A stretch of DNA of 64,000 nucleotides from an uncultured Phycisphaerales bacterium (GTDB lineage Bacteria > Planctomycetota > Phycisphaerae > Tepidisphaerales > Tepidisphaeraceae): positions 800,001-864,000 of the forward strand of contig CAWJPJ010000008.1 in the NCBI GenBank assembly GCA_963844715.1, read 5' to 3'. Under the pieces are notes generated by a model, which had not been told where the DNA came from, ran no database searches, and worked only from the letters and a program-made list of their open reading frames with translations. Each line of letters starts with the position of its first letter. Positions within the stretch are counted from its first letter, which is position 1. This document shows positions 580 to 50,311 of the stretch, in pieces. The translations under genes were made by a program, and so were the position numbers.

Positions 580-3500
580 TATCGCAACTCCTCTTCAACT
601 TGGGTGATGGGCGGCTTGTGCCGCAGAGCGCTGTAGACGACGGGGACGAAAAAGAGTGTGGCGAAAGTCGCCAGCATGAGGCCGCCGATGACGGCGCGGC
701 CGAGCGGGGCGTTTTCCTCCCCGCCCTCACCGAGGCCGAGGGACATGGGGAGCATTCCGATGATCATCGCCAGGGCGGTCATGATGACGGGGCGGAGGCG
801 GGTCATTCCGGCGACGAGAGCGGCGTCGTGGGAGTCGAGGCCGTGCTTTCGCTGATCGTTGGCGAAGGTGATCATGAGGATGCTGTTGGAGGTGGCGACG
901 CCGATGCTCATGATTGCGCCCATGAGGGAGGGGACACTAATCGTAGTGCCGGTGAGGAAGAGCATCCAGAGAATTCCCGAGAGGGCGCCGGGGAGAGCCA
1001 TCAAGATGATCAGGGGATCAAGCCAGGATTGGAAGTTGATGGCCATGAGGAGGTAAACGAGGATGACGGCGAAGATCAATCCGAAGGAGAGGCCGGTGAA
1101 AGACGCTTTCATGCTCTGGACCTGGCCGCGGACGGCGATGGTGGTTCCGCGCGGGAGGTCTTTTTTGACGCCGGCGACGATTCGATCGACGCCGTCGGCG
1201 ACGGAATTAAGATCGGTGCCGCGGACGTCCGCCAGGACATCGTAGGTGGGCAATTCCTGGTAGTGGGTGATGTTGGTGGGGGAGCGGCCGCGATCGATCG
1301 TGGAGAGATTTCCGAGCAGTTGGGTGGGGAGCGCGCCTTCGGGGAGAGTCATGGCGGCGGTGGCGACGGGGGAAGTCTGGAGATCGTTGATGTTTTCATA
1401 CCGATAGGGCGGGGTCTGGACGAGGACGCTGTATTGGCGTCCGCTGCGGGGATCGACCCAGAAATTGGGGGAGGCCTGGGCGGTGCCGCTGAGGGAGATG
1501 AGCATGTCGCTGGCGACGTTTTGCTGGGTGACGCCGATTTGATCGGCCAGGACGCGATCGACGTTGAGGCGAAGATCGGGAGTGTCGGTCACCTGCTGGA
1601 GGCGCAAATCCACCGCGCCGGGGACTTGGCCGAGCTGGGCGAGAATATTATTGGCGATGGAGAAATCCTTGTCGGCATTGGGCTGTGGGCCGGCGATTTG
1701 AATGTCGATGGGGGCGGAGATGCCGAAATTCAGAACCTGGGTGACGATATCGGCGGGGAGGAAGAAGAAGGTCTGGTCGGGAAATTGTTTGGGGAGGTCC
1801 TTGGCGAGGCGATCGATGTATCCCTCGGTGGGGGCGTGATTGTCGTTCAGGGCGACGAGGATTTCGCCGTCGGCGGGGGACATCATGGTGCCGTCGCTGA
1901 GGGAAAGATTGATGGAGCTGTTGGGAATTCCCATGTTGTCGGTGATGGTTTCGACTTCAGATGGGGGAATTTCCCTGCGCATGTAGTTTTCGACGGCGCC
2001 GAAGATTCGCTCGGTTTGTTCGATGCGCGTGCCGGGCGGGTTGCGGACGTGGAGGCGGATTTGTCCGGCGTCGACGGTTGGGAAGAAATCGCGGCCGATG
2101 AAGAAAAAGAGGGAACAGGAGAGAAGCACCAGTATGGTGAAGGCGGCGGTGAAAGTGGGGCGATGCTTGAGGCGCCAGGGAGAGGAGGCTGCCGTAATAT
2201 TGGCGGAGTTGCTCGAAGTAGTGCTCGAATTTGTCGTGGAAGCGCCAGAGCCAGTTGCGGTGGCGATCGAGGTGGGCCTTCTTTTCGTCGACGTGGGGAT
2301 CGTTGGGGTCGATTTTTCCGCCGTACATTTCGACTTCGTTGGCCAGGAGATAGTGGACCATGGTGGGGACGAGGGTTCGGCTGAGGAGATAGCTGGTGAG
2401 CATGGCGAAGACAACGGCCATGGCCAGGGGCGTGAAGAGAAACTTCGCCGGGCCGCTGATGAAGACGACGGGGACGAAGACGATGCAGATGCACAGGGTC
2501 GAGACGAAAGCGGGGACCGCGATTTGGGAGGCGCCATCGAGAATGGCCTGGACGAGGCGTTTTCTCTGGTGGAGATTGCGGTGGATGTTTTCGATTTCGA
2601 CGGTGGCGTCATCGACGAGAATGCCGACGGCCAGGGCCATTCCGCCGAGGGTCATGACGTTAAGGGTCTGGCCGAGCCAGTGGAGGACGATGACAGAGAC
2701 CATGATGGAGAGGGGAATGGAGATGACGACGATGAGGGTGCTGCGCCAGCTTCCCAGGAAGATGAGGATCATGAGGCCGGTGAGTCCGGCGGCGATGGCG
2801 GCTTCGCGCATGACGCCGTTGACGCTGGCGCGGACGAAGATGGATTGATCGAAGAGGGGGGTGATTTTCATTCCGCCGTTGGGGACCTGTGCGGAGATTC
2901 CCGGGAGGGCGGCTTTGACGCGATCGACGACGTCGGTGGTGGAGGCGTTTCCGGCCTTGAGGACGACCATGAGGACGCCGCGTTTTCCGTTGGTGTGGAC
3001 GATACTGGTCTGGACCTGGAAGCCGTCGCGGACGTAGCCGATGTCCTTCATCTGAACGGTTGCGCCGTTGACGGTTTTGATGGGCATCTGATTGATGGCG
3101 TTAACCAGCGGGGGGCTGCTGTTGAGAATGACGGGGTATTCCTGCTTGCCGATCTTGGTGGTGCCGGAGGGGATGACGAGATTCTGGGCGGCGATGGCGT
3201 CGGAGACCTGGCTGGGGGAGATTCCCCAGGCGTAGAGTTTTTCGGGATCTAGATCGACCATGATCTGGCGGACTTTGCCGCCGTAGGGCCAGGGCAATTG
3301 CGCGCCCTGGACGACGGCGAGACCGGGGCGGATGTATTGATTGCCGTAATCGAAGAGTTGCTGCTCGGTGAGGGTGTCGCTGCTGAGGCTGAGCTGCAGG
3401 ACGGGGACGTTGGAGGCGTTGTATTGAATGATCAGCGGCGGCTGAGTTCCCGGCGGCATCGAACGAATCGCGGTTTGGGCGATGGCGGTGACCTGTGAGA

Positions 3501-4291: not shown

Positions 4292-4424
4292 GATGCCGCG
4301 CCCCCGGGGCTGAGCGGGATGGCCGCGTGGAGAGGGGCTTTCGCGGGGTTTTATAGGCGATCTGTCTGAAGTGGGGCTGGCTCTGGCTTATGGGGGGCGG
4401 GTGGTCTAGAATGTAATTATAGAT

Positions 4425-4498
<74 letters not shown>

Positions 4499-4509
4499 TT
4501 CCAGATGAC

Positions 4510-4545
4510 AAAGGGACTTGCAGCGATGCGAGTCCCTTTTTCTTT
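4510..4545 (+). terminator. Rho-independent terminator after tRNA
   Basis: aaagggacttgca-gcga-tgcgagtcccttt followed by T tract. Confidence 0.75.
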
Positions 4546-4597: not shown

Positions 4598-5851
4598 ATG
4601 GTACTCGCCAAGGAGTGTTCAACACTTGTTCCTTGGAGGTGGCCAGTGGCCTATTTGTTCAAGCGCGGAAGCGTCTATTACGTGAAGTTCTACGTCGCCG
4701 GAAAGCAGAAGGAGAAATCCCTCGGCACCGGCGTCTACCAGATCGCCAAAGAGAAGCAGCGGTTGTTCGAGTCGGCGCGGGCCAGAGGTGAAAGCCTTCC
4801 GATGCCGACGCGCACGCCCATCGCGGAGATCGTGACCGCTTACGTCGCGGCCATCCGCACCGCCAAGACGGCCAAGAGCGCTCAGACCGACATCTATTAT
4901 CTCCGCGATGTGTTCGGCCCGATTTGCGACGCTCTGAAAATCACGAGCCGCAAGGCGTCGGAGAAAACCCGCAAGCGCCAATTGAAAGATGACGTGGACC
5001 GCCGGCACAAGGCACCGGTGATCGAAGCCGACTGCTTCGAGGCCATCACGACGGCGCAGATCGTCGAATTCGTTTCGGGCCAGGTCGCTCGCCGTGGCCT
5101 CGCGCCCAAGACTGCCAACCGCTATCGTGAAATCCTCACCCGCCTTTTCAATTGGGCCGTGGAGCAAAAAGGCGTGCGGCTGCCGGGCGACCGCAATCCC
5201 GCCTCCAAAGTGGAACGCTATCGCGAGTCGGCGCCGAACATCCGCTTCCTGACGCTCAAGCAAATCGACGAGCAACTTGGCGCGCTGGCCGACAATCTCA
5301 AGCTCCAGGCAATGGTGGCCACGCTGATCTTCGCCGGTTTGCGGCGCGAGGAGTTGTTATGGCTCACGCACGACGACTTGGATTTGGACACCGGGAAACA
5401 CGGCCTTATCCGAGTTCGGGCAAAGGAAATTCATGGCGAGTCTTGGGAGCCGAAGACGAAGAAGAATCGCGCCGTGCCGGTGAGCTCGCGGCTTCGCCAT
5501 TACCTCGACAAGTGGCAACTGAAAATGGAAAAGAGCAAAGGGGCGTGGATTTTCCCAAGCCCCGAAGGGAAGAGATGGGACCCCGACAACTTCTCCCAGG
5601 ACTTGCGCGCAACAAACGAAAACGCGAAATTATCCTGGGGTTGTCTGGATTTCCGCCATACGTTCGGCAGCCAACTCGCGATGAAGGGTGAGAGCCTTTA
5701 CAAAATCAGTAAGCTCATGGGAAACTCGCCGGAAATTTGTAGTCGGCATTACGCGGCTCTGATTCCTGAGGAAATGGGGGATTCCGTCGAATTCGGCGCA
5801 ATAAAAGATTCGATGATATCGCCTTCCCATGGGACAGCCATGCGAGCATAG
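4598..5851 (+). CDS. int: Tyrosine recombinase/integrase (true start possibly GTG near 4646)
   Basis: AGLRREEL (R), KTKKNR (K), DFRHTFGSQL, LMGNS, HY catalytic motifs; N-terminal arm-binding-like segment. Confidence 0.93.
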   Translation: MVLAKECSTLVPWRWPVAYLFKRGSVYYVKFYVAGKQKEKSLGTGVYQIAKEKQRLFESARARGESLPMPTRTPIAEIVTAYVAAIRTAKTAKSAQTDIYYLRDVFGPICDALKITSRKASEKTRKRQLKDDVDRRHKAPVIEADCFEAITTAQIVEFVSGQVARRGLAPKTANRYREILTRLFNWAVEQKGVRLPGDRNPASKVERYRESAPNIRFLTLKQIDEQLGALADNLKLQAMVATLIFAGLRREELLWLTHDDLDLDTGKHGLIRVRAKEIHGESWEPKTKKNRAVPVSSRLRHYLDKWQLKMEKSKGAWIFPSPEGKRWDPDNFSQDLRATNENAKLSWGCLDFRHTFGSQLAMKGESLYKISKLMGNSPEICSRHYAALIPEEMGDSVEFGAIKDSMISPSHGTAMRA

Positions 5852-5931: not shown

Positions 5932-7272
5932 ATGGCAAAGCGGCTTACAAACTCACAATTACTCGGCCAGCAAGGCATGGACTTAGTCTCGACTCGAGTT
6001 CATGAAATGGGTTTCGCCTGGCATCCAACGAACGCCTCCCTCGATGCGGGCATCGACGGTTACATCGAACTCCGCGATCCAAATTCGGGTGAGGCCAAAA
6101 ATGCGATCTTGCTGGTACAAAGCAAGGCGAGATCCACTCTTGAACGGGAAACTGACGAAACCTTTGAATTTACATGTACACCCGAAGATTTGAGCTACTG
6201 GCTTCAAGGAACAGCACCCGTCTTGCTCATCGTGTCCAAGCCGAAAGAACAGCGCGCGTGGTGGGTATCGGTTAAGGATTACTTCCGTTCCCCTGACGCC
6301 AACAAGAGCCGACGGGTTCGCTTTGTCAAGCATGACCAGGCTTTCGACAAATCGGCGGCCACGTCACTGATAGCATTAGCGGCCACTTCGGGCAGCGGCG
6401 CATATTTCCCGCCGATCCCACGGCAGGAAAAATTGCTGTCGAATCTGTTAGCCGTCACTCGGTCACCCACCCGAATCTACTGGGCGCAAACGCAATTCAC
6501 TGATCGCAACGAGGTTTGGGACGAGCTAAAGAAACGCGTCGAATGGCCTGACCGCGAATGGTTCCTTTACGAACAGAAGATTTATTCGATCCACGACCTT
6601 CACGACGATCCATGGGCGAAGGTTTGTGACATCGGAACCATCGAGACAGCCGACGGAAGGGAATGGAGCCGCTCCCGCGACCGCGACATTCAGCGCATGT
6701 TCGTCCGCTTCCTTAACGAGTGCTTGCACTCGCGCGTGAGCCCGATGGGATTGCGCTTTACCGGCGCGTCAGAATGTTTCTACTTCAAAGCCACGAAGGA
6801 CCTGACAACCCGGCGAAAATCGTATCGAAGTCTGAGGGTCAAAGCGTCGCGGGACGTTTTCAAAGCTTATCCATCAAAAGCTGACCCAACGCGCATTGCG
6901 TATTACCGTCATGTTGCCTTCGAGCGTCGTTTTCGCAACTACGACGGTAAGTGGTTCTTGGAGATTAACCCGACTTATGTCTTCACGTCCGATGGGCATG
7001 AACTCCACCCATTTCGGGAAGAACTGTTGTCGAAGATAAAGACGATAGAGGGAAACGCCGCAGTTCTTGGGCTTGTTGTCATGTTCGCTGACCTGCTTCA
7101 TGACGATGAGGGATTATTTACCCGGGCGTATCCCCACCTGGGCTTCGGATGGCTCGAAACCGTGGAATTGCCAGTTGGCATCGACGACAAGGCGTGGCTC
7201 AATCGCGACGAGCTAAAGCTGCCCGAGTCTGACGAGGAAGACTTCACCCAAACTTTATTTGACCGATGTTAG
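5932..7272 (+). CDS. DUF4365 (DREN, PD-(D/E)xK nuclease)-APAZ effector of a short Argonaute system
   Basis: N-terminal DAGIDGYIEL...LVQSK motif typical of DUF4365; C-terminal ...WFLEINPTYVFTSDG APAZ-like region; overlaps pAgo start. Confidence 0.8.
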   Translation: MAKRLTNSQLLGQQGMDLVSTRVHEMGFAWHPTNASLDAGIDGYIELRDPNSGEAKNAILLVQSKARSTLERETDETFEFTCTPEDLSYWLQGTAPVLLIVSKPKEQRAWWVSVKDYFRSPDANKSRRVRFVKHDQAFDKSAATSLIALAATSGSGAYFPPIPRQEKLLSNLLAVTRSPTRIYWAQTQFTDRNEVWDELKKRVEWPDREWFLYEQKIYSIHDLHDDPWAKVCDIGTIETADGREWSRSRDRDIQRMFVRFLNECLHSRVSPMGLRFTGASECFYFKATKDLTTRRKSYRSLRVKASRDVFKAYPSKADPTRIAYYRHVAFERRFRNYDGKWFLEINPTYVFTSDGHELHPFREELLSKIKTIEGNAAVLGLVVMFADLLHDDEGLFTRAYPHLGFGWLETVELPVGIDDKAWLNRDELKLPESDEEDFTQTLFDRC

Positions 7273-8810
7273 CATTTTTTCTTGAAGAACCCGAGTTGGA
7301 GTTTGCCCGAGGCGGGCGCCACATCGACATCCGATTCGGCCTCAGCACGCTCGGGCCGCTGGATCGGACAGGTGAACTGGCGCCGCGAGCGATCCGCGTC
7401 GGCGTGGTGGGTGACGCGGAGAGCGTGGACGGTTTTCAGCAATGGATTACCAAATGCCGCGGCGGCATCGAGGCCAAGCCGTCGCCTCTCTCAACGCTTT
7501 TTCCATCATTCCCAGGTTTTGGCACGACCGGAGCCTTCTGCGATTTTGTCTGCACCCCACAATTGACTTCCAGTATTTCACGCAGCGATCTAGATGAACT
7601 TGCGGCCATAGAACCAGCGCCTTTACTTATCGAGCAATCCGTCACCCGCTATTTGAATGAAGCCGCTAGCTTGATCGAGAACACCAACGCGGACGTCATT
7701 GTCTGTATTCTGTCACCGACCTTGCTTAAAAAGATCGACGTTCAAAGCGAGCATCGTCGCGGCCCGCGCTCGCGGAAAATTGCCTCAACCGCGACGACCG
7801 CCGACAAAGTCGTATGGCACGATTTGCTGAAGGCTCGGGCGATGAAACTTCGCAAACCGATCCAGGTCACTCGGCCCGGAACATTCGGGGGGCGTGTGCA
7901 GCGGTATAAGCAGGACGGAACGAGTAGTCTTGAACTTCAGGATGAAGCAACCCGCGCCTGGAACTTTTTCAGCGCGCTCTATTATAAGGCAGGCGGAATC
8001 CCATGGCGGCTTGTGAGACAGACAAGCGACCTGGCAACGTGTTACGTTGGTATAAGCTTCTTTGAATCCAAGGATCACGATGCGTTGCAGACGAGCGTAG
8101 CCCAAGTATTTAACGAACGGGGTGAAGGCGTGATTGTCAGAGGCGGTCCGGCGACAATCGACAAAGATGATCGCACGCCCCATGTTCGGGATGAAGACGC
8201 CGAACAATTGCTGTCTCGTGCATTGGAACTTTACCGTACCGTTCATCGCACCATGCCGGCCAGGCTTGTGTGCCATAAGAGTTCTTATTTCACCGCTGGT
8301 GAAAAAGCCGGCTGTCGAGCTGCGGCAAAGGCAGCGCGCATCGATGGCGCTGACCTCATTTCAATCCGCAAGAGTATGACCCGGTTATACCGGAAAGGTT
8401 CGTATCCCCCGCTTCGCGGCACGGCTGTCAACGTATCGGACATGGAAACATTGCTGTACACGCAGGGGAGCATCGACTTTTATCGGTGTTATCCGGGCCT
8501 TTACGTCCCACGGGCATTTTCCGTGCAATGGGACGATGTGGAACAGAGCCAACGAAAATTGCTTGAGGAAATTCTCGCGCTTACGAAAATGAATTGGAAC
8601 AGCACGCAATTCGTAAACTCTGAGCCGATCACACTGGCGGCCTCGCGCAATGTTGGTGACATTCTTCGGTATTTGGGAAAGGACGACCCGATCGAAGCAC
8701 GCTACTCGTACTATATGTACGCGCCCGCACCTCATATCGTTAGCGGCATTCATCAAAATGCGAGCGACCGTTCCGGCGGACTTGCATTTCCGGAACGGTC
8801 GCTGCGATAA
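7266..8810 (+). CDS. ago: Short prokaryotic Argonaute (MID-PIWI, catalytically inactive); real stop probably near 8720
   Basis: EEPELEF start, WHDLLK/IQV/ALYYKAG MID residues, CYVGISFF (no catalytic D), YPPLRGT, LTKMNWN, PIT, YSYYM end. Confidence 0.92.
   Translation: MLAFFLEEPELEFARGGRHIDIRFGLSTLGPLDRTGELAPRAIRVGVVGDAESVDGFQQWITKCRGGIEAKPSPLSTLFPSFPGFGTTGAFCDFVCTPQLTSSISRSDLDELAAIEPAPLLIEQSVTRYLNEAASLIENTNADVIVCILSPTLLKKIDVQSEHRRGPRSRKIASTATTADKVVWHDLLKARAMKLRKPIQVTRPGTFGGRVQRYKQDGTSSLELQDEATRAWNFFSALYYKAGGIPWRLVRQTSDLATCYVGISFFESKDHDALQTSVAQVFNERGEGVIVRGGPATIDKDDRTPHVRDEDAEQLLSRALELYRTVHRTMPARLVCHKSSYFTAGEKAGCRAAAKAARIDGADLISIRKSMTRLYRKGSYPPLRGTAVNVSDMETLLYTQGSIDFYRCYPGLYVPRAFSVQWDDVEQSQRKLLEEILALTKMNWNSTQFVNSEPITLAASRNVGDILRYLGKDDPIEARYSYYMYAPAPHIVSGIHQNASDRSGGLAFPERSLR
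8763..8803. terminator. 14-bp perfect hairpin between convergent pAgo and xis genes
   Basis: agcgaccgttccgg (8763-8776) / ccggaacggtcgct (8790-8803). Confidence 0.6.
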
Positions 8811-8835: not shown

Positions 8836-9045
8836 TCATCCCTGCCGTTTGGTCTCGAATTCTTCCACCTCCTTTCGGTTGTACCGCACAATTCCGTTGC
8901 GCCCTTCGCCAAGACAAAGCCGAGTCAGGCCAGCGCGCCGGGCGATTCGGTCAACGCTTGAACGCGAGCAGCGCCACCGCTCCTGAAGCTCTTTGGGCGA
9001 CAAATATGGCGAAACTGCCGGAGCGTTCACTTCAATCGTCGTCAT
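8836..9045 (-). CDS. Excisionase-like / AlpA-type HTH DNA-binding protein
   Basis: 69 aa, YLSPKELQERWRCSRSSVDRIAR...VRYNRKEVEEF winged-HTH pattern; near integrase. Confidence 0.75.
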   Translation of the reverse strand: MTTIEVNAPAVSPYLSPKELQERWRCSRSSVDRIARRAGLTRLCLGEGRNGIVRYNRKEVEEFETKRQG

Positions 9046-10719: not shown

Positions 10720-11193
10720 GTGCGATCAGAGCATCATTTAACACGATTTATTGCCGAGCGCGTCGCCGGATCAAGGGCCGACTGCCTTTGTTTCGGCGAT
10801 GCGGTTCGTCGGCGGATCGGTCGTAATGGCCGCATCAGTCATTACTTTCAGCCCGGTCAATTGTTTTCTGTGGTCTGGCGGCGGCAATACTCGCCCGACC
10901 GCGAACATCGCACCTTCGCAGTGGTTGAATCGCTACCGGCTCGCAAGATCGGTCAGATTCTTCCAGGCATTCATCCCGGAGTTGCGATTCACGCGCTTGT
11001 TCGCCAGCATGGACCGGCGGGACAGGACGAGGCCGTAGATCGCCTGCTCGATCTGATTGAGGAGTTGAAATACCAAGGACGCAATCCCGCAGAAATGTCC
11101 GCTGCCTTCTGGACGGAAGCAGCGCAAAGACTACTTCTCTGCGATGAGCCGTTGGAATCATTTGGGATTGAGAGCTTGGCATGTCTCATGTGA
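10720..11193 (+). CDS. DUF2840 family protein (ICE backbone)
   Basis: FG...FQPGQLFSVVW...LPGIHPG...VDRLLDLIEEL...NPAEMSAAFW pattern; directly before traF as in Tn4371-like ICEs. Confidence 0.7.
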   Translation: MRSEHHLTRFIAERVAGSRADCLCFGDAVRRRIGRNGRISHYFQPGQLFSVVWRRQYSPDREHRTFAVVESLPARKIGQILPGIHPGVAIHALVRQHGPAGQDEAVDRLLDLIEELKYQGRNPAEMSAAFWTEAAQRLLLCDEPLESFGIESLACLM

Positions 11194-11734
11194 CGTTCTT
11201 CGGCTGGCGTCGTTCGACGCACGGTAATCGCGCTCGTCGCGTTCTGTTACGCCTTGCGCGAAATCCTTGTGGCACTCGCGATTCTGCCGGAACTGGGCAC
11301 GCGCCGAGTTCTCGTCATCAACACATCGCCGAGCGTGGCGCCCGGCCTGTACTTACGTTCTTCGGACGAACCTGCCGTCGGGAAACTGGTGGATTTCTGC
11401 ATTCCTCCCGCCGCTCGTGATTATGTGCGCGGACGCACCGGGAACAGCGGCGAAAATTGGTACATTCTCAAACCGATTACGGCCGGTCCGGGCGACCTCG
11501 TTGACACGACCGGTGCGTGGCTGGCGATCAATGGGCATTCCGTTGCACCCATGCCACCGGCGGTAGATACGCGCCGGGCGTTCGCTGCCTCTCTGGCGCG
11601 ATCGCCGCGTGCTCAATGCTGATGAATTCTTTGTGTTCTCCGGGCGGATTCCCAACAGCTTCGACAGCCGTTGCTACGGTCCAATCAAGAGAAGCCAAAT
11701 CGATTCCGTCCGCGAGGCATTGCTGACCTGGTAA
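11181..11734 (+). CDS. traF: S26 family conjugative signal peptidase TraF (frameshifted)
   Basis: INTSPSVAPGLY, ILKPITAGPGD, NSFDSRCYGPI motifs across frames. Confidence 0.8.
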
Positions 11735-11858
11735 ATGCTGCAAAAAACGCAGACGAAAGTCATCGACAACCTTCGCAGATTGCGGAAGCGCGTGCGATCC
11801 TTGATCGGTGCGGGCGCAATTCCTTTGTTCATTCCGTGCGTTTATGATCCCCGGCAGG

Positions 11859-14800
11859 ATGTCCAACCCCTTTTTTGAAAAACCGATCCTCAGCTCTCCC
11901 TACTCGTGCCCAACACGGCATTGGGAGCTAGACATCCACGGTCAGCCAACCCAAAAGATTCTCGAAAAGCGGCGGCGGGCGGAGTTCATCACGCCCATTC
12001 CTAAGCCGCGAAAACGCAAGGATTCAGCCAACCAGCAACAGATTATTTTCGACGAGGGAAAAGGGCTTTCGACAAAAGAACAGCAATACGATCCCACGTC
12101 AATCATCAATCAGCTTCGTCAGCAAGTTGACCAATGGCGGACTTTAACTAACCCCAATGATTGGCAAGTCACGCCCGAGACTGCGCGTTTGATCCAGCAC
12201 TGGCGGCATCATAAATTCAACGGTATCCGGCCTTTCTTCTGCCAAGTGGAGGCCGTTGAGACGGCCATTTGGATTACCGAAGTAGCGCCTCACGCGGGGA
12301 AGTCGGGCAAGGCAATAGTTGAGCACTTGGCAAACGCCAACAACGACGCCAATCCAGGACTCATGCGCCTCGCCTTAAAGCTGGCGACTGGTGCCGGCAA
12401 GACCACTGTAATGGCGATGCTCATAGCGTGGCAAACGATCAATGCAGTGCGCCGACCGGCAGGCAAACACTTCACGCGCGGTTTTCTGGTCTGCGCACCC
12501 GGCTTGACGATCAAAGACCGCTTGCGTGTTCTCCAGCCCAACGACCCCGACAGCTACTACGCCAGCCGTGAACTCGTTCCTGGCGACATGCTCGACGACG
12601 TAAACCGGGCCAAGATCGTTATCACCAACTACCACGCATTCAGGCTGCGCGAGCGTATCGAACTTTCCGCCGGCGGCCGCGCATTGCTTCAAGGCCGCGG
12701 CGGCGATGAACTCAACACGCAGGAGACTGAAGGCCAGATGCTCCAGCGCGTGATGCCCGACCTGATGGGAATGAAAAACATTCTGGTCATCAACGATGAA
12801 GCGCACCATTGCTACCGGGAAAAACCAAAAGCCACCGACGAAGAGGATTTGAAAGGCGACGAACGGAAGGAGGCCGAGAAGAACAACGAGGCCGCCCGCC
12901 TTTGGATTTCCGGTCTGGAAGCCGTGAACCGCAAGCTCGGTCTCAGCCGCGTTATTGATTTGTCCGCGACACCATTCTTCCTCCGCGGCTCCGGCTACGC
13001 CGAAGGCACTTTGTTCCCTTGGACGATGAGCGACTTTTCCCTTATGGATGCCATCGAATGCGGCATCGTCAAACTGCCGCGCGTCCCCGTCGCTGAAAAC
13101 ATCCCTGGCGACGAGATGCCGATGTTCCGCGACCTTTGGGAAAACATCCGCAAAGACATGCCCAAGAAGGGGCGCGGCCAAGGCGAGGAGCTCGACCCAC
13201 TGAAACTTCCCACGCGCTTGCAGACGGCGCTGCAAGCACTTTATGGCCATTACGAGAAGACATTTAAGCTTTGGCAGGATACGGGCATCGCGGTTCCGCC
13301 GTGCTTTATCATCGTTTGCCAGAACACCGCAATCTCGAAACTCGTTTATGACTTCATCTCCGGCTTTCATCGCAAGAACGATGACGGCACCACTACCCTT
13401 GAAAACGGACGCCTCGCGCTATTCCGCAATTTCGATGAAACCACCGGCAACCCGTTCCCGCGCCCGAATACGCTCCTAATCGACAGCGAGCAACTAGAAG
13501 CTGGCGATGCGCTCGATGACAACTTCCGCGGTATGGCAGCCGACGAAATTGAACGCTTTCGACGCGAGATCGTGGAGCGCACCGGCGACGCCCGCGCCGG
13601 CGACAACATCACCGACCAGGAATTGCTCCGCGAAGTCATGAATACCGTCGGCAAGCCCGGACAGCTTGGCGGTGCGATCCGCTGCGTCGTGTCTGTGTCG
13701 ATGCTGACCGAAGGATGGGATGCCAATACTGTCACGCACGTACTCGGCATTCGCGCGTTCGGCACTCAACTCCTGTGCGAGCAGGTAATTGGTCGCGCTT
13801 GCGTCGCCAATCTTATGAGTTGAATGAAGAAGGGCTGTTCAATGTGGAATACGCCGATGTCTTCGGGATTCCGTTCGACTTTACCGCCAAACCTGTCATC
13901 GCGCCGCCGCAGCCACCGCGCGAAACAGTTCAGGTGAAGGCCGTGCGCCCTGATCGCGATGCACTGGAAATCCGATTCCCGCGTGTCGAGGGCTATCGCG
14001 TGGAACTTCCCGAGGAACGCCTAACGGCCGATTTCAACGGCGACTCCATCTTGGAATTGAGCCCGGACCTCGTTGGTCCATCCATCACGCGCAACTCCGG
14101 GATCATCGGCGAAGGCGTTGATCTTGGCCTCAAACATTTGGGAGACATCCGGCCATCAACGCTGGTTTTCAACCTCACTCAACGGTTGCTCTACACAAAA
14201 TGGCGCGACCCCGGTGAAGAGCCGAAGCTCCATCTTTTCGGCCAGCTTAAGCGCATCACCAAGCAATGGCTCGACACCTGCCTCGTGTGCAAAGGCGACA
14301 CCTACCCGGCGCTGCTCATGTACCAGGAGTTAGCAGACACGGCATGTAACCGCATCACAGCAGCCATCACTCGTCAATTTCAGGGCACACGCCCGATTAA
14401 GGCGCTGCTCGATCCATACAATCCCGCCGGCTCGACGAGCCACGTTCGGTTCAATACGTCAAGGCCCGACCGTTGGGAAACGAGTTCAAAATCCTGCCAT
14501 ATCAATTGGGTTGTTTTGGATAGCGATTGGGAGGGGGAGTTTTGCCGCGTGGCGGAATCTCATCCGAAAGTCCGGGCCTATGTGAAGAACCACAATCTCG
14601 GGCTGGAAGTGCCGTATCGCTACGGTTCGGAAACACGGAAGTATTTGCCTGACTTTATTGTGCTGGTTGATGATGGTCACGCGGCGCGGTCCGACGGAAA
14701 ACCCGACTTGCTCCACCTTGTCGTGGAGATCAAGGGCTACCGACGCGAAGACGCGAAAGAAAAGAAGTCCACGGTGGAAACCTATTGGGTGCCTGGCGTG

Positions 14801-14947
14801 AACCACCTGGGCGCATATGGCCGGTGGGCCTTCGCCGAGTTCACAGACGTTTACCAGATCCACGCCGACTTTGCTGCCAAGATCGCGAGCGAGTTCGATA
14901 AAATGATTAAAGCGGCTACCGAAACACCCACGACCGAGAGCAAATAA
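11859..14947 (+). CDS. Type III-like restriction endonuclease Res subunit (frameshift near 13795)
   Basis: LATGAGKT Walker A, NDEAHH, LSATP, MLTEGWDA, EQVIGR; C-terminal YLPDFIV...VEIKG nuclease. Confidence 0.88.
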
Positions 14948-14948
14948 C

Positions 14949-17762
14949 ATGGCGAAGAAATCGGCAGCCTCCAAAACCGTAGAATCTCTCAAGCACGGCG
15001 CCGATAAGCGGAAGAATATTCCAACCGCGGAGTTTCAATCCGTTTTGAGGCAAGAGGCACAGCACCCCATCCGTCTCGCCTATGAGCGCCGCAATCGCGA
15101 CCTCGATCCGCAACTCGTATGGCGCGGAAAGGACGAGCAGGATTGGAGCAATCTGATTGTTCACGCTCCGCCACTTTACATCCAAGAGAAGGTCCACCCT
15201 AAAGTCCTCATCGAAGACTTGCTGCGTCAAACCAGAGATATCCGAGCGCAGGAGCCTGGCCATCAGATCGACCTCTTCGCCGATTTCAACGGCATCGCAA
15301 ACGACGCCGACAAGACCGAGTTCTATCAGCACGACCAGAATTGGAGCAACCGCATGATCCTGGGCGACTCGCTCCAGGCGATGGCAAGTCTCGCCGAGCG
15401 CGAAGGCCTGCGCGGTCAGGTGCAATGTATCTATCTCGACCCACCTTACGGCATCAAGTTCAACAGCAACTTCCAATGGTCCACCACGAGCCGTGACGTC
15501 AAGGATGGCAATGCGGGCCACATCACCCGCGAACCGGAGCAGGTGAAAGCGTTCCGCGACACTTGGCGGGACGGCATCCACAGTTATCTCACCTATCTGC
15601 GCGACCGCCTCACGGTCGCTCGCGATCTTCTCACCGATTCCGGATCGATCTTCGTTCAAATTGGACAGGATAATTGTCACCTCATCCGTTCTTTATTGGA
15701 TGAAGTTTTTGGTGCCGAGAATTTTATTTCGCAGATCGTGTTCTCGAAGACCGCGAGCGCGACATCGGAATATCTCGCTGGCACATACGATGTCCTCGTT
15801 TTATACGCAAAATCGCACGAGAAATTGAAATATCATCAACCCCTGACGCTGAAGCAACTTGGGGGGTTGGGTGGCAGTGCATATAAAAGAGTCCGGCTTC
15901 CAAATCTCTCGGAACGAGCGCTCACCCCCGAGGAGCTTGCCGGCCAGCAGGAGCTTCCTGCGGATTCGCGTGTGTTTCGTATCGACAACCTCACGAGTCA
16001 AAGCGTTGGGCGCGACAAGGGTGAAGGAGCAGCTTCGTGGTTCCCCGTGGAGTTCGAGGGGCAAACGCTTCGCCCCTCTGACAAGGTGCGATGGAAAACC
16101 AACGAACAAGGAATGAGTCGTTTGAAAATGGCGTCTCGCCTTAGTTCGACGGGCAAGGGCTTATATTATGTGCGCTACTTTCAAGATTTCGCCGCATTTC
16201 ACGAGGACAATGTCTGGGCCGATACCGGGATAGCGGGCTTCGCCTCTGAGAAGCGATATGTTGTCGAAACCTCTGAGAAAGTCGTTCAGCGCTGCCTCCT
16301 CATGACGACAGACCCCGGCGATCTCGTTCTCGATCCAACTTGCGGCTCCGGCACGACCGCCGCCGTCGCCGAACAATGGGGCCGCCGTTGGATTACCATC
16401 GACACTTCCGCGTCGCATTGGCACTTGCTCGCGCCCGCATAATGGGTGCGCGATATCCATTTTACTTTTTGGCCGATTCTCGCGAAGGACAGCTTAAGGA
16501 AGCCGAAGTCGCGCGGCACGTCGCCAAGTTCGCAACCAACACGCGGGAATATCCGTCATGGCTTTGTCTACGAACGTGTGCCGCACATCATGCTAAGTTC
16601 TATTTCCAGCAATGCGGAAATTGATGTTATATGGAGCAAATGGCAGGCCATCTTAGACCCGTTGCGCAAGAAACTGAGCGCCGCGCTCAGGACACAATTG
16701 CATGATTGGGAGATTCCGCATGAAGCGGACGCGAAGTGGCCGGAATCAGTGAGGGCACTGCATGGCAACTGGTGGCAGGCGCGCATTGCACAGCAGACGG
16801 AAATCGACAAGTCGATCGCTGCCAAGGCGACGTTTGATTACCTCTACGACAAGCCGTACGCCGACAAGAAAACGGTAAGGGTATCTGGCCCCTTCACCGT
16901 CGAAAGTCTGAGTCCCCACCGAGTGTTGGGCGTGGATGAAAACGATGACTTGATTGATCCTCTAAAGACGCACAATCCCGACTTCGGCGCAAAGCAATCC
17001 TTTGCTCAGATGATCATCGAGAATCTCAAGACGGCTGGTGTCCAACAGGCTCACAAGGAGGATAAAATCACCTTCATCGCCCTCGCTCCTTGGCCGGGCG
17101 AACTGGTCTGCGCCGAAGGGCGCTATATGGAACGCGAGACCGAGAAGCGTGCCGCCATTTTCATCGGCCCGGAATTCGGCACTGTTCAACGTGCCGATCT
17201 AGTCGCCGCGGCCCGCGAGGCCGGCGATGCCGATTTCGATGTGCTGATTGCCTGCGCCTTCAACTACGAGGCCCACACTACGGAGTTCAATAAGCTAGGC
17301 CGTATCCCCGTGCTCAAGGCCCGTATGAATGCGGACCTCCACATGTCGGACGACCTCAAAAACACCGGCCAAGGCAACCTCTTTGTCATTTTCGGCGAGC
17401 CGGACATAACTCTTCTCAACGAGAAGGATGGCAAACTTCGTGTGAAGGTAAATGGCGTGGACGTATTCAAACCTCAAACGGGCGAAGTTATTAGCGACAA
17501 TTCCGATGGCATCGCCTGCTGGTTCATCGACACCGACTATAACGAAGAGAGTTTTTTCGTCCGCCACGCGTACTTCCTTGGGGCCAACGATCCTTACAAC
17601 AATCTAAAGACGACTCTCAAAGCCGAAATCAACGCTGACGCTTGGGCTACGCTGAACAGTGACACTTCACGACCTTTTGAAAGACCCAAGAGCGGCCGCG
17701 TAGCCGTGAAGGTAATCAATCACCTTGGCGATGAAGTCATGAAGGTATTCAAGGTAACGTGA
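14949..17762 (+). CDS. Site-specific adenine DNA methyltransferase (Mod, beta class), frameshift near 16410-16520
   Basis: YLDPPYG catalytic motif before DPTCGSGTT SAM motif; C-terminus VAVKVINHLGDEVMKV. Confidence 0.88.
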
Positions 17763-22291: not shown

Positions 22292-22307
22292 TGGCGGAAA
22301 CTCATCT

Positions 22308-37572: not shown

Positions 37573-38040
37573 ATGGCCAGCTACAACAAAGTGATCCTCA
37601 TGGGACACCTGACCCGCGATCCGGAGTTAAAGACGCTGCCCAACTCGGATACGCAAGTGTGCGATTTCGCGCTGGCGGTCAATCGCCGATGGAAAGACGC
37701 CAGCGGCGACGACCGCGAGGAAGTCTTGTTCATCGACTGCGCCGCGTTCGGCAAGACCGGACAGACCATCGGCGAGAGCTTGACCAAGGGCCGACCGATC
37801 CACATCGAAGGCCGTCTCAAATTCGAGCAGTGGGAGCAGGAGGACGGCCAGCGGCGCAGCAAGATTCGTGCGGTTGTCGAGCAATTCCGGTTTGTGGACC
37901 GCAAGCCGACCACCGGACAGCCAGCCGAACGCAACGGACGCGGCAAACGCCGCACGAATGCCAAGAACAGCCGCCCGGCGCGGCAACCCGAAGGTGAGCC
38001 GGTGGGCGCGGGTGTGGGCAAGGAGGATGTTCCTTTCTAA
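37573..38040 (+). CDS. ssb: Single-stranded DNA-binding protein
   Basis: YNKVILMGHLTRDPE, IEGRL, acidic DVPF C-terminus. Confidence 0.95.
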   Translation: MASYNKVILMGHLTRDPELKTLPNSDTQVCDFALAVNRRWKDASGDDREEVLFIDCAAFGKTGQTIGESLTKGRPIHIEGRLKFEQWEQEDGQRRSKIRAVVEQFRFVDRKPTTGQPAERNGRGKRRTNAKNSRPARQPEGEPVGAGVGKEDVPF

Positions 38041-38052
38041 CCGAGGTGTCCC

Positions 38053-40980: not shown

Positions 40981-40990
40981 TCCTGCTCCT

Positions 40991-44702: not shown

Positions 44703-44901
44703 CGGTTTAGTTCAATTCATTGGGTTGAACTATTTTTTTGTAATTAAGAAGGGAAGGCAAGGTAAAAGCGAGCCAGTGGGTGTTTTTGTAAGTCTCAGGC
44801 CCACGAAGGGTTGGCGCAACCTATGCCAGTTTGATGACAGTGGGTTTCCAATGGGTCGTTTTTCAGAGCTTTGGATGCTCGAAAGAAGCTCGGAGGTACG
44901 T

Positions 44902-46886
44902 ATGCCGCGGAGATTCAGAAGGCAGCCGGATGGTGTTGATTCGGATCAGATCGGCCGAATGGGCGCACGACGACCGCGGGAGCGGAGCGTCAACAGCGAG
45001 CTCGCCCGGCGCCTGCGCGGTTTCAAAGGGCGCACGCGAAAGTACCTGCCGGGCGGTTCCGCCGGCCGGGGTATGCGGCAGCGGGTTGTCGTCAAGGCGC
45101 ACGTCAGCCGACACAAGCCGGGCAAGGCGCGGGGGAGTTTGGCGCGCCATGTGTCATACCTGGGACGGGAAAGCGCCAGCGCCGACGGCAAGCATGGCGT
45201 GTTCTATGACGCCATGCGCGAGGGGGTGAACGCCAGGCAGGAGGCCGTCCAATGGGCGCAGGACCGGCACCATTTCCGGCTGATCGTATCCCCGGAGCGC
45301 GGCGGCGACATCCCCGACATGACGGCTTACGTGCGCGAAGTCATGCGCCGGGTGGAGCGGGATCTGGACACCAAGCTCACGTGGATCGCCGTCAATCACC
45401 ACAATACGGACAACCCCCATGCGCACATTCTGCTGCGCGGGAAGCAGGCGGACGGGGCCGATCTGGTCATTCCCCGACAATATATATCGTATGGAATCCG
45501 GGACCGGGCATCGGAGGTGGCGACCGAACTGCTGGGAGAACGGACGCCCCAGGAAGTCCAGTTGGCCAAATCCAAGGAGGTCGAAGCGGAGCGATTTACC
45601 TCACTGGACCGGATGATCGAGCGAGCGTTGGACAACGGCAAGATCGACGTTTCACCGTCGAAGCATATCGGCTTTGGCGCGGATGATCGGCGGTTGGTCG
45701 TGGGCCGCTTGCAGTTCCTTGAACAGATGGATTTGGCGCACAAGGGCGCGGAACGACCTGGCATGTTGAGGGGGATTTCAAGCAGGCTCTGCGCGAACTC
45801 GGGAACCGCAACGACATCATTCACCAGCTCTACAGCCAGTTGGGCAACGAATCGGGACGAGTTGTGCCGATGGCTGGCGGCAATCGAACCCTCACCGGCG
45901 GTCGCCGGCGTGGTCATTGCCAAGGGCAGCATCGATGAGCTGGGGGAAGATCGGTTTGTCGTAGTTCGTGACGGGAGCGGGCAGGCGCACTACGGCCGGG
46001 TCAGAGACAGCGCGCCTTACCGGGACCTGGAGATCGGGTCGGTCGCCGAACTGGGCGCGGTGCGCAGCGTCGGCGGGAGGTGATCGAGCAGGTCGTGGCG
46101 GTCGCCAACGCCAATGACGGAATCTATTCGCCGCAGTTGCACGAAGCTTATTTGCGCGGGACCGGACCAGACTCGACCGATCGGGAGATTGCATCAAGCG
46201 TGCGCTCGGCAGCATGGCGATTGGGCTTTGTTGCCGGCTTCGAGGGGTCCGGGGTGCGCGCATTGGGGAACGGTGAGTACGCCATCGATGCCAATTCCTT
46301 TGCGCAATTCAGTCAGCGGGGAAGCCAGCGAACCGACGTTCGGGTGATCGCCGAGCACTCGCTGGCAAAGCAAGTTGAGGCACACGCGGCGACGTGGCTG
46401 GACCGTCAGACGTTCGGACGGCAACGGGATGCCCGCACCGACAACAATCCGATCGTTCAGGAAGCGGCGCAGCACCGGCAGGAATGGCTCGTGCTAAACG
46501 GGTATGCCGAGCGATCCGCCGGCGACACCGGAACGGTTCAACTGCTTCCCGGCGCATGGGAGCAACTTGCGGCCGAGGAACGTGCCGAAGTGGCCGAACG
46601 GCTGGCCGGCAAGTACGGCCTGCCAGTCAACGAACTGCCCCAGGGCGGCACGGTCAGTGGCGAGTACCACGGCACGGAACACCTCCACTCGGGCAAGGTG
46701 GCTGTGGTCGTGGCGGAGGAGAGCGTGTTTGTCTCACCCGTCAGCCGCGATCCCGACGTTGGCATAGGCAATGAAGTCAGTCTGCAGCGCACATCGGCGA
46801 GGGATGCGACGGTTGAACTGGCGGCGGGACAAACGCTTGACTTGGATGCCGGACTGTCTCGGGACGGACCGGGAGGTGACGAATGA
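44902..46886 (+). CDS. VirD2-like (MOBP, RlxS/DUF3363-type) relaxase, frameshifted
   Basis: QRVVVKAH, RHVSYLGRE (Tyr), HHFRLIVSPE, AVNHHNTDNPHAHILLRG HUH motif, ERFTSLDR, ATWLDR. Confidence 0.88.
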
Positions 46887-48739
46887 ACGCGCGACGACTC
46901 TTCATTGCATACCTGATCGTATTGGTGGCCGGATTGGTGACAGCCACCCAATGGGTTGCATTCCGGTTGAATTACCATCCTGCCCTGGGAGGCGTGCGCA
47001 TCGGCGGGCACATGGTCTACGCGCCCTGGGCAATGTTCATCTGGGCCCGCGACTTCGGTGACAACATCCCCAAAACGCTCACCGAGGGGTATGCGTTCAT
47101 CGGCGGCACTTTCATTCTGGCCACGCTCATGCTGGTTGGAGCGCGCCAATTGCGCCGCCACATCCCCGTCCGGGAGATCGGCAAGGATCGTTGGGCCAGC
47201 AAACGCGACATGAAGCGCGCTGGTTTACTGACCGGCCAGGGAACCGTTCTTGGACATGCCTTTGGTCAATATCTCACCTACGACGGACCCGAACACCAGC
47301 TTGTTTCCGGTGCAAGCCGGTCCGGCAAAGGCGTGGGACACGTTATTCCCACGCTGCTGAACTGGAACGGCAGCATCTTGGCCTACGACATCAAGAACGA
47401 ACTGTGGGACGCGACCGCGGGGATGCGCGCAAAGCGAGGTTACTGCCTGTTCTTCAATCCGACCCGGCCGGACAGCGCCCGGTTCAACCCGCTCTTTGAG
47501 ATTCGCAAGGGTGCCAACGAAGTGCGCGATGCGCAGAATATCGTCGAGATGTTGGTGAACCCAACCGGCGCAAAGCACACGATGGACATTTGGGACCAGC
47601 AGGCGAGCCAATTTCTGGTGGCGCTGATCCTGCATGTGCTCTACACCGAGCCGGATCAATATAAGAATCTGGCGACGGTGCGGGCGCGATTGCTCGACTT
47701 CAAGCGGACCGCGTTGGCGATGATTCGCACGCCACACCGCTTCAACCCGCAGACCGGTGCGCCGGAGGTTCACCCGGAAGTGGCGCTGGTGGCCAACGAG
47801 CTGCGCCGCCAGCCGGCGAAGTTCCAGTCCAGCGTGTGCGGAACGGCGGCGGCATATCTCACACTTTGGGCGGACGACATCATTGCCCGCAATACAGCTA
47901 CCAGCGATTTTCGGCTGAGTGATCTGGTGTGCGCCGACCGGCCCATGACGCTTTACATCCAGCCGCCACCCTCGGATGCACCCCGTTTGCGCCCTTTGGT
48001 CCGGCTGATGATCAATCAGACATGCCGGGCACTGATGGAATATCTCGACCGCGATAGCGCCGGCCGACCGAAGAACCATCGCCTGTTGTTGTCGCTAGAT
48101 GAGTTCCCGACGCTTGGACGATTGGACTTTTTCACGATGAACCTGCGCCAGATGGCCGGATACGGAATCAAGGCGCACCTGATCGTCCAGTCCTTCAACG
48201 ACATCATCGAGCAATATGGCACGAACAACACGATCCTGGACAACTGCCACATCCTGAGCACCTTTGCCGCTGCCGATACCGTCACCTGCCAGCGTATCAG
48301 CCAAATGGTCGGCACCGTGACCGAGTACCGGGAGAGTTATTCGCAGGCCGCTCGGAACCTTGGGGCGAGAACGATCAGCCACAGCGAACAGGTTCGGCCG
48401 CTTCTGTCTCCCGGAGACATTCGGGAATTGCCGGTGGATGACCAACTCATGTTTGTAACCGGCTTCAAGCCAATGCGCGTGAAGAAGGTGCGATATTTCA
48501 ACGATCCGATCTTTATGAAACGGATTCTGCCAGCGCCGGATCAATCAGCGTATCTGAACGTACCGGCCAAACCCAAAATCGACTGGCTGCACGAGCGGCC
48601 CAAGGGGCCGGAATTGGCGTTGCCCGCACCGAGTCATAACGGCCTATCGGCGAGCGGGAGTCCCGCCGCGGATTCCGACGAGGATACGGAGCAAGACGCG
48701 ACAGACCAGAACCTTCACTCTGAAAGTGAATACACGTGA
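46883..48739 (+). CDS. traG: Type IV coupling protein TraG/VirD4
   Basis: N-terminal TMs, GASRSGKGVGHVIPTLL, RFNPLFEIR, LDEFPTLGRL, AGYGIK. Confidence 0.93.
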   Translation: MNARRLFIAYLIVLVAGLVTATQWVAFRLNYHPALGGVRIGGHMVYAPWAMFIWARDFGDNIPKTLTEGYAFIGGTFILATLMLVGARQLRRHIPVREIGKDRWASKRDMKRAGLLTGQGTVLGHAFGQYLTYDGPEHQLVSGASRSGKGVGHVIPTLLNWNGSILAYDIKNELWDATAGMRAKRGYCLFFNPTRPDSARFNPLFEIRKGANEVRDAQNIVEMLVNPTGAKHTMDIWDQQASQFLVALILHVLYTEPDQYKNLATVRARLLDFKRTALAMIRTPHRFNPQTGAPEVHPEVALVANELRRQPAKFQSSVCGTAAAYLTLWADDIIARNTATSDFRLSDLVCADRPMTLYIQPPPSDAPRLRPLVRLMINQTCRALMEYLDRDSAGRPKNHRLLLSLDEFPTLGRLDFFTMNLRQMAGYGIKAHLIVQSFNDIIEQYGTNNTILDNCHILSTFAAADTVTCQRISQMVGTVTEYRESYSQAARNLGARTISHSEQVRPLLSPGDIRELPVDDQLMFVTGFKPMRVKKVRYFNDPIFMKRILPAPDQSAYLNVPAKPKIDWLHERPKGPELALPAPSHNGLSASGSPAADSDEDTEQDATDQNLHSESEYT

Positions 48740-49329
48740 GCGAACGCAAGACCCAACTTTCGGTCTTTTTAGAGCAACAAGTGCTGCTGGCCGCCAGGCA
48801 GCGCGCAAAAGAAATGAAGCTCTCGATGTCGGCGGTTGTGGCCGAAGCGGCCAAGGAATCGCTGTTGTCCGCTTATCGGAGCGAGCGCGAACAGGAAATC
48901 CTCAAGGCGGTCGAGCGAAACTTTCATGCGCTACGCCGGCTGGACCAGCGGTTGGCGCTGGAGATTCAGATCCTCAAGGAAATGGTCGGGCTGGGGATGC
49001 GCTCGTTTTTCAACCATACCACGCCGATTCCAGACGCGACCAAGGCTGCCGCGATCCTCAGCGGGAAGCAGCGATTTCATGGCTATATCGACATGCTGGC
49101 CAAGAATCTGCGCAAGGGTGAATCGATCCTCAGCGACCTTCCGTTGCCCGAACTTGATCCACCGAAGGAATCAACGCAGCCGCCGCAAAATGTCGAAGAG
49201 GTGGCCCCGACCAATCACGCTCTTAGCGCAGCTAAAGCCAAGGACCGTGCAACAAAACAAACTGTGCCGACCAGCGCGCCGAATGGCGCTCGTGAGTGGG
49301 CGTTGTTCGAGCCAAGCGGAGAGAAGTAA
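48736..49329 (+). CDS. Ribbon-helix-helix/CopG-like protein between traG and trbB
   Basis: N-terminal KTQLSVFLE...MSAVVAEAA RHH-like pattern; position as in Tn4371-like ICEs. Confidence 0.55.
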   Translation: MSERKTQLSVFLEQQVLLAARQRAKEMKLSMSAVVAEAAKESLLSAYRSEREQEILKAVERNFHALRRLDQRLALEIQILKEMVGLGMRSFFNHTTPIPDATKAAAILSGKQRFHGYIDMLAKNLRKGESILSDLPLPELDPPKESTQPPQNVEEVAPTNHALSAAKAKDRATKQTVPTSAPNGAREWALFEPSGEK

Positions 49330-49351
49330 TTCAAAACAAAGGAAATCAATC

Positions 49352-50311
49352 ATGGCGGCTAACGCAAATTCCGTTCATCACCGGCAGCAGGAAAGCCTCT
49401 ATCACGCCTTGGGACCGTTGATCGCCGAGGCGTTGGGGCGTCCCGACGTGGTCGAGATCATGGCCAACCCGGATGGAAGTCTATGGGTGGACCGCGCCGG
49501 CGTTGGACGTGAGAGAGTCGGCCGAATTGAGCAGGCGGCGGCCGAAACCACGATCCGGCTACTGGCGAGCCATATGGGCGAGACGGTTACGCCGGATCGT
49601 CCTGCCGTCGCCGGTGTTTTGCCGCGCAGTGGGGAACGATTCCAAGGACTATTACCGCCTCTGGCCGAACGGCCCGTATTCACCATTCGCAAGCGCGCTT
49701 CGATTGTTTTTACACTCGATGATTACGTTGCAAAGGGAATCCTGCCGGCCGCTAGTGCCGATGTGATTCGCAGCGCCGTCGTCGAGCGGAAAAACATCCT
49801 CGTAGCCGGTGGCACCGGATCGGGTAAGACCACGCTGGTCAATGCGATCCTGGCAGAGCCACCGTTCAAGAGCGATCGCATCGTCCTCATCGAAGACACA
49901 AAGGAGCTTCAATGCCCCGCAGACGATAAGGTTGAACTCCTGACAAAGAATACTGAGCCGCGGGTAACGATGACGGATTTGCTCCGCATGACACTCCGCC
50001 TTCGTCCAGATCGAATCATCATCGGCGAGGTCCGTGGGCCGGAGGCACTGGCCATGCTTAAAGCATGGAACACCGGCCATCCCGGCGGCGTGGCCACTAT
50101 TCACGCGAATTCGGCATCCGATGCACTTCGACGTATCGAAGACCTGGTCGGAGAAGCCTCGCAGATCATTCCGACGCGTTCTATCGCATCCGCGGTGAAC
50201 CTTCTAGTTTTCATCGAGCGCACGAGTGCTTTCCCCGGCCGATTGGTTCGCAGTATTGTCGAAGTCCGAGGTTTCGAGAATGGAGAATACTTACTGCAAG
50301 AAGGCACTTAA
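49352..50311 (+). CDS. trbB: P-type conjugative transfer ATPase TrbB (VirB11)
   Basis: [51 protein letters not shown]. Confidence 0.93.

Follow-up and report, generated by a model that had tools for sequence, protein, structure and literature searches.

The stretch of DNA analysed here, called the window below, covers 64,000 nucleotides of contig C8 of the genome under study, G000 (G000:C8:800001-864000). Near its left end lie two overlapping genes, one for a DREN-APAZ nuclease and one for a short prokaryotic Argonaute (pAgo), which together make up an immune system of the SPARDA kind. They sit between the integrase gene (int) and the convergent excisionase-like gene (xis) of a conjugative element that is integrated at a tRNA-Met gene. 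The features of this region, in the order in which they stand, are:

4424..4499, plus strand: tRNA-Met (CAT), the integration site (ARAGORN; Rfam RF00005)
4456..4498, plus strand: att core of 43 bp, the 3' part of the tRNA (blastn)
4510..4539, plus strand: terminator-like hairpin that follows the tRNA and contains GGACTTGC in its 5' arm (sequence; comparison of loci)
4646..5851, plus strand: tyrosine integrase (PF00589, E 1e-16)
5932..7272, plus strand: DREN(DUF4365)-APAZ effector, 446 aa (Pfam, PADLOC, alignment to PDB, fold)
7266..8720, plus strand: short pAgo (MID-PIWI), canonically 484 codons ending at M484 (PADLOC, alignment, fold)
8718..8810, plus strand: lost stop codon (TAC for TAA) and a 30-codon read-through tail (ORF calls, homologue ends, model)
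8763..8803, no strand assigned: conserved 14-bp inverted repeat with the loop CGGACTTGC, which bounds the cargo slot on the right and lies about 30 nt from the stop of xis (comparison of loci)
8836..9045, minus strand: excisionase-like gene with an HTH_17 match (PF12728, E 4e-5, under the Pfam cut-off), convergent with int

The pair belongs to SPARDA, a known kind of two-gene immune system that PADLOC already matches. A first-pass annotation, made from the letters of the window, had proposed a DUF4365-like nuclease-APAZ gene overlapping a MID-PIWI Argonaute, and the profile searches bore this out. The 5932-7272 open reading frame (ORF) matches PF14280 (DUF4365) at residues 13-149 with E 7e-26 (91 bits against a cut-off of 24), the PADLOC profile Aga_REase-PNTD1-PNTD2 covers its residues 1-436 (E 1.5e-147), and the ORF from 7266, which overlaps it by 7 nt, matches the PADLOC profile pAgo_I (E 8e-160). 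The assignment to SPARDA itself is upheld by sequence and fold alike, the closest PDB relatives of both chains being the subunits of the Eae, Xau and Nba SPARDA systems. The AlphaFold models (mean pLDDT 83 and 88) gave a fold ranking in agreement with the sequence ranking; the Argonaute matches SPARDA across its whole chain in Foldseek (E 3e-46, TM-score to target 0.89) and the effector reaches E 3e-35 overall. The effector has the APAZ fold on which the first-pass annotation had staked its proposal, because the fold search ranks SPARDA chains first, the APAZ-only chains 9QBL_A (TM-score to target 0.84) and 9VX1_B (0.87) included. It can also be aligned to 9JSB_D and 9QBQ_A through the N-terminal DREN domain of the PD-(D/E)XK type, with D38, D42, Q63 and K65 falling on the catalytic residues E37/D41/Q62/K64 of Xau and D41/Q60/K62 of Nba, as their roles are given in the available passages of PMC12205087, PMC12774872 and bioRxiv 2025.04.08.647717.

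Homologues were aligned from the best 120 of 3,594 matches together with one cluster member, giving 121 Argonautes, with DREN counts taken over 120. The nuclease core is kept in these proteins (D42 in 118/120, Q63 in 119/120 and K65 in 114/120), and an acidic residue stands at the position equivalent to E37 in 118/120. The C-terminal tail of the effector is acidic. The PIWI domain of the Argonaute appears dead, as had been predicted: in the alignment, the motifs that we take to hold the catalytic tetrad contain S264, K338-S339-S340 and A459-S460-R461, and no acidic residue. Against the related locus L001, the DREN-APAZ gene has 112 synonymous to 22 non-synonymous codon differences and the Argonaute gene 123 to 31. 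The third-position GC of the two cargo genes is 0.62 and 0.59; that of int is 0.74, of traG 0.74 and of a host gene 0.79.

The placement of the pair between int and xis, also foreseen, was confirmed, and the gap that it fills is a real hotspot for defence cargo. The slot was surveyed at 70 loci in which an integrase homologue reaches its C-terminus. A xis homologue lies downstream of int, within the DNA fetched, at 43 of them; the other 27 (short contig, longer gap or no xis) were left out. Sixteen of the 43 gaps are shorter than 140 nt, and the remaining 27 measure 411-11,076 nt. Once five near-duplicate pairs were merged, reducing the 43 loci to 38, there were 13 empty and 25 loaded slots. 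With PADLOC applied to 41 of the 84 gap ORFs and Pfam to 37 of them, matches to PADLOC models at E 1e-10 or better were obtained in 15 of the 25 loaded slots. SPARDA occupies the slot in the window and in L001. Elsewhere it holds Cas9-cas1 loci (L126, L156 and L150, the last with an array of about 85-90 repeat units of period 66), type III restriction-modification (RM) systems (L143, L157), Lamassu (L155), TIR-TM (L142), the PADLOC candidate systems PDC-S59, M43, M11, S14 and M36, a NACHT protein (L154, where the xis call is weak), a histidine kinase (L054/L055, whose integrase is 96-97% identical to that of the window), and a RES-HTH pair (the third element of G000, with L141 similar by eye); some loaded gaps contain unknown genes. 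In L058 the slot holds, in the opposite orientation to the window pair (positions 2004-3451, minus strand), a cut-short TIR-APAZ gene joined to the final third of a short Argonaute gene. An apparent internal deletion took the end of APAZ and the first ~300 Argonaute residues, and what remains represents a second and independent Argonaute system. The cargo thus ranges from single genes to whole Cas9 loci, in either orientation.

The claim that the int-xis gap is a cargo hotspot therefore rests on the 43 loci compared and, besides these, on contigs from three independent runs which link the int end to the 8756-8762 side with 72-129 letters between, the joints on the int side falling at 5778-5796. 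On the left, identity among relatives stops past the int motif DSVEF (about 5794), and in close elements it returns at the base of the inverted repeat at 8763-8803. Recombination between the conserved end of int and the flank made up of hairpin and xis is the probable means by which cargo is exchanged. It is worth adding that the homologues of this SPARDA are mostly found outside such a slot, since an integrase (five types were searched) lies within 8 kb in only 1/50 loci, namely L001. The hotspot is one of a known kind. Those of the P4 satellite (psu-int) and of P2-like phages are, according to the available part of PMC9122126, likewise slots of 1-10 kb with high turnover beside an integrase, placed between two conserved genes and carrying defence cargo either way round. 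The present slot differs from them in that a conjugative element of Phycisphaerae, integrated at tRNA-Met, carries it, in that it lies between int and xis, and in that it is bordered by a covarying hairpin and accepts whole Cas9 loci too. Literature searches by title or abstract start, in which subscription papers are largely outside coverage, returned no description of it, so that the int-xis slot of a widespread element family would be a defence hotspot not found in those searches.

Several unannotated or weakly annotated genes stand in or beside the slot (L158:1709-3073, L153:1797-3174, L122:1784-3856 and a gene after int in L071), and such occupants, for example those of L158 and L153, are candidate new defence genes. 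A SPARTA/SPARSA-like short Argonaute of 31% identity was also seen in L143 (G301:C6:98,353-99,807), about 17 kb past a related integrase and outside the gap.

The integrase is carried by 55 of 401 genomes of the class, a count that includes G000 itself and the unpublished G283. One of the carriers, G150 (locus L001), belongs to the same family and another genus, and has the int-SPARDA-xis module at 87% DNA identity; its genes past xis differ from those of the window. The module had no match in the two same-genus genomes searched, and the integrase of G150 is 91% identical to that of G000, as against a median of 71% for the conserved genes of one same-genus genome. These observations together point to a horizontal movement of the module.

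Among characterised systems, NbaSPARDA, XauSPARDA and EaeSPARDA (PDB 9JSB, 9QBQ/9QCC and 9QBP) have the same order of DREN-APAZ followed by short pAgo, the same folds and D/Q/K core, and a dead PIWI domain; homology runs over the full length, with Foldseek identities of 32-34% for the Argonaute and 26-30% for the effector. Unlike these three, the window pair stands in a Planctomycetota-centred branch and in the int-xis slot of an integrative conjugative element (ICE), and it has a 30-aa tail as assembled. It further differs from them in its HK-type pocket, which lacks the Asn and Trp reading the 5'-A of the guide, and in having no Glu16 in DREN. SPARTA, which combines TIR-APAZ with a short pAgo (PDB 8ISY, 8FEX), shares the APAZ and MID-PIWI folds. 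The window effector differs from it in being a PD-(D/E)XK nuclease and not a TIR NADase, and the identity is only 22-24%. The pocket of SPARTA is HK-type. TmuRE-Ago, or TmuSPARDA, shares the DUF4365-APAZ gene with a short Ago and the Q-x-K active site, as described in the accessible part of PMC10810196.

The one reading-frame lesion seen in the operon is at the end of the Argonaute gene. The first-pass annotation had placed the system at 5932..8720; the start was right and the end was not, as codon 8718-8720 is TAC and the assembled Argonaute, of 514 aa, stays open to 8810, across the conserved hairpin. We consider it likely that the locus is a SPARDA cargo in the int-xis slot of a tRNA-Met ICE, that its Argonaute truly ends at M484, and that the missing stop is an indel of the assembly. 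In L001 the Argonaute stop is TAA, and one added A in the window would yield TAACGC as in L001. The tail is predicted to be disordered (pLDDT <50 at residues 486-514). All 121 aligned homologues end at the M484 column and none has such a tail; the remaining two members of the 90% cluster of this Argonaute are both 484 aa long, and the stop is at the M484 position in 48 of the 49 genomic loci with an Argonaute end, the exception (L049) being a fragment. The rate of assembly errors was estimated on 146 conserved genes, 160 kb in all, drawn from 400 kb of a genome of the same genus: G000 has 52 frameshifts spread over 39 of the 146 genes, about 0.3 per kb, and at most 2 clean in-frame stops (26 such stops, first counted, were artefacts of alignment edges or wrong frames). 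A stricter pass gave 24 deletions and 22 insertions, with 36 of the 46 in one- or two-base runs. At this rate about 0.9 indels are expected in the 2.8-kb operon, where the Argonaute stop is the sole reading-frame lesion seen, and neighbouring genes in the window are likewise split by frameshifts. A comparison of repeat copies was set aside as an error gauge, being confounded by alignment ends and true divergence of the insertion sequences (IS), and the orthologue test was used instead. Recoding of the stop codon was rejected, since both changes lead to sense codons in the DNA itself.

Several points weigh against this reading. The prior of an indel striking one given stop codon is only ~0.001. 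The DREN stop is also unlike that of L001 (TGT for TGA, adding one Cys) and the spacer that follows the Argonaute exceeds that of L001 by 12 nt, so this region holds real change. The decay of the second pAgo system, in L058, looks real; among the public runs searched, none shared half the words of this DNA; and a promoter was looked for upstream of the operon and none was found. On the nuclease side, Glu16 is present in 0/120 homologues of the clade (V 88, I 24, gap 5, Q 2, M 1), the window having M16.

If the stop were truly lost, the tail would block the free C-terminus needed at the guide 5'-end pocket, and SPARDA would be disarmed in this strain. Such disarming may have been selected, since SPARDA would be auto-toxic amid much mobile DNA or would hamper the element's own transfer. 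A tail of this size matters, because a C-terminal tag of 29 residues leaves XauSPARDA no longer toxic at normal expression (available passages of bioRxiv 2025.04.08.647717), and by analogy the tail as assembled would probably disable the Argonaute. In the same direction, SPARDA slows growth in cells without invaders (Prostova preprint, in the part available), G000 contains numerous IS copies as well as three att sites in tandem, and the deleted pair of L058 stands beside an integrase 91% identical to that of the window. However, L058 is a single metagenome contig that may be misassembled, the tail is absent from every intact homologue, and other signs of decay are lacking, the window having 14 private residues where its two nearest orthologues have 7 and 12. 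Indel errors are, in addition, frequent across the genome, even in genes of essential look. Two of these we take, from their sequences, to be ribosomal L2-like and FtsH-like genes. A real loss is thus unlikely as an account of the locus. With about 0.3 frameshifts per kb in the assembly, sequence comparison makes an assembly error clearly the likelier origin of the lost stop, a real allele taking the minor share, and the system is probably functional, with an assembly flaw at the Argonaute stop codon. Anyone cloning the locus should note that the assembled tail resembles a known inactivating tag, and split genes anywhere in G000 should first be suspected of assembly error; if the tail were real, this would be a natural self-disarming allele.

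The system kept under an M484 end also has features of its clade. Its MID pocket is HK-type (W184, H185, K189, Q200, R203, K241), with H185, K189, Q200, R203 and K241 invariant in 121/121 homologues and position 184 mostly W. The residues N181, F182, R183 and W201 of Nba correspond to V183, W184, H185 and R203 here; N181 and W201 are those which read the first guide adenine, in the available passages on Nba. Q225, N233 and K241 (Nba Q224, N232 and K240) are kept, so the Q and N that read U2 are retained. In a quick tree of 52 rows, 14 of them chosen by hand, the window falls in an 18-row HK branch (SH-aLRT 100) separate from the alphaproteobacterial RK branch, and the HK branch is Planctomycetota-centred. 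From these residues we infer that the HK pocket probably reads another 5' guide base than the 5'-AU of Nba and Xau. This branch of SPARDA is apparently unstudied: the same title and abstract-start searches, with the same coverage, found no HK-type SPARDA. The clade would thus predict a guide specificity unlike that of the 5'-AU systems, which is relevant to programmable detection tools.

It could be argued that with these changes the clade departs from canonical SPARDA, its nuclease being weak or altered or its guide chemistry different (for example 5'-U, 5'-OH or DNA guides), and that it would in this way tolerate its conjugative host or act mainly against competing elements. The replacements V183, W184, H185 and R203 and the change of DREN E16 to V, I or M are clade-wide, and the 18 sampled members form one fully supported branch apart from the RK branch. 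Guide rules do vary within SPARDA, as TmuSPARDA favours 5'-OH, 5'-U guides (accessible part of PMC10810196). Yet the pocket has the canonical 5'-phosphate MID motif (HK, Q, K), and the available passages of bioRxiv 366930 count HK, like RK, among the canonical 5'-phosphate motifs of short pAgos; Q225, N233 and K241, the D-Q-K nuclease core and the acid equivalent to E37 are all retained. Glu16, a glutamate of DREN helix 1, is named among the catalytic-site residues of Nba in PMC12774872, whose available passages give no mutant of it, and we do not treat it as defining SPARDA because two further papers, in the passages available, define the DREN catalytic site without it. A non-canonical clade is accordingly quite improbable.

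The slot is bordered on the right by a hairpin that shares a motif with the left end of the element. GGACTTGC occurs at 4514-4521, in the hairpin beside attL, and at 8778-8785, in the loop of the right-edge hairpin. A motif related to the post-tRNA hairpin was found in 38 of 55 loci examined and the loop motif of the right-edge hairpin in 24 of 43, and with integrases below about 50% identity other motifs mostly stand at both places. In 21 rows selected by motif, 10 of 13 pairs of the right-edge hairpin are altered on both sides, a value above 500/500 shuffles and all slid controls, though inflated by kinship and by the motif-based selection of rows. Few changes affect one side only, as would fit a DNA inverted repeat or a terminator acting in both directions between convergent genes; Rfam gave no family at gathering score over 8763-8803, with chance-level matches only. 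An integron-like cassette array was rejected, as the hairpin motif occurs once in 18 of the 27 loaded gaps, is missing from nine and is never found twice. It is very doubtful that the integrase or excisionase of the element operates the slot as a site-specific exchanger of cargo, a one-slot, integron-like device for swapping immune systems; the idea leans on the shared GGACTTGC, the sharp stops of identity at the stem base and DSVEF, and the cargo found in either orientation.

How a SPARDA in such a slot may act can be outlined, by homology, from its characterised relatives. DREN-APAZ and the Argonaute would form a heterodimer, and the Argonaute would load short 5'-phosphorylated RNA guides from abundant transcripts. 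Pairing of the guide with exposed single-stranded DNA of an invader would displace the acidic APAZ tail and start filament assembly, upon which DREN tetramers would cleave DNA indiscriminately and the cell would die, which would defend both population and element against plasmids, rival elements and some phages. The first-pass annotation had seen a puzzle in how an anti-invader system on a conjugative element avoids attacking its own carrier. This does not hold up as a special problem of this element, because DREN-APAZ homologues are found on 22 plasmid records, of which 15 are predicted to be conjugative (some records are redundant strains), and because a threshold model has been published. 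In that model, in the part available of the Prostova preprint (bioRxiv 2023.06.08.544223), activation depends on copy number and transcription, with no self mark; an integrated single-copy element would thus fit below the threshold, and probably does. During transfer, its single strand would be brief, coated with single-strand DNA binding protein (SSB) and present in few cells.

The carrier is an ICE of ~80 kb, as the following backbone genes and the trb genes lie between the first two att copies:

10720..11622, plus strand: DUF2840 and TraF-type S26 peptidase genes, conjugative backbone (profile matches)
37573..38040, plus strand: SSB (PF00436)
44725..50311, plus strand: DUF3363 (split in two), TraG coupling protein and TrbB-type ATPase (profile matches)

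VirB3, VirB4/TrbE, TrbL, VirB8, CagX and TrbI follow just beyond the window (C8 ~864-874 kb), still within the att pair, and the conjugative nature given to the element by the first-pass annotation was confirmed by TraG, TrbB and these trb genes. Several transfer genes are split by frameshifts in the assembly. The evidence for a relaxase is the DUF3363 match, in two pieces, and DUF3363 is a domain that we take to be relaxase-associated. An origin of transfer was not located in the element. A prophage was considered and dropped: viral contigs had no close relative of the integrase and phages no match to the Argonaute. By gene content alone, the element resembles what we presume to be typical of Tn4371-like ICEs, with DUF2840, TraF, a relaxase-associated gene, TraG and a trb cluster in common. 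Of the 36 loci in which a tRNA was found, 34 have a tRNA-Met gene upstream of int.

The att core recurs at C8:884,389 (~80 kb on) and C8:920,483 (~116 kb on), which makes the elements tandem, and the second and third copies each precede an integrase paralogue, of 66% and 47% identity. These two further tRNA-Met att copies (L052 and L053; G000:C8:884,389-923,300) differ in what they carry. The second element no longer has xis, and beyond it lie pieces of traG/trbB and a type II secretion cluster; the RES-HTH pair in the slot of the third is toxin-antitoxin-like. More defence cargo is found in the first element, at window positions 11808-19832 and 54820-63787, with type III-like RM genes, a RelE-like/UvrD helicase, type I RM genes and an AAA-DUF3696 gene, several of these genes being split by frameshifts. 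ImuB-like and dnaE2-like genes for error-prone polymerase lie in many pieces at 20165-25535, with a 90% copy at C8:926-930 kb. Also inserted in the element, at 31196-42391, are an IS110 transposase and, in two clusters, tandem tyrosine recombinases that are presumably RIT-like, and near-identical copies of these insertions are present elsewhere in the genome.

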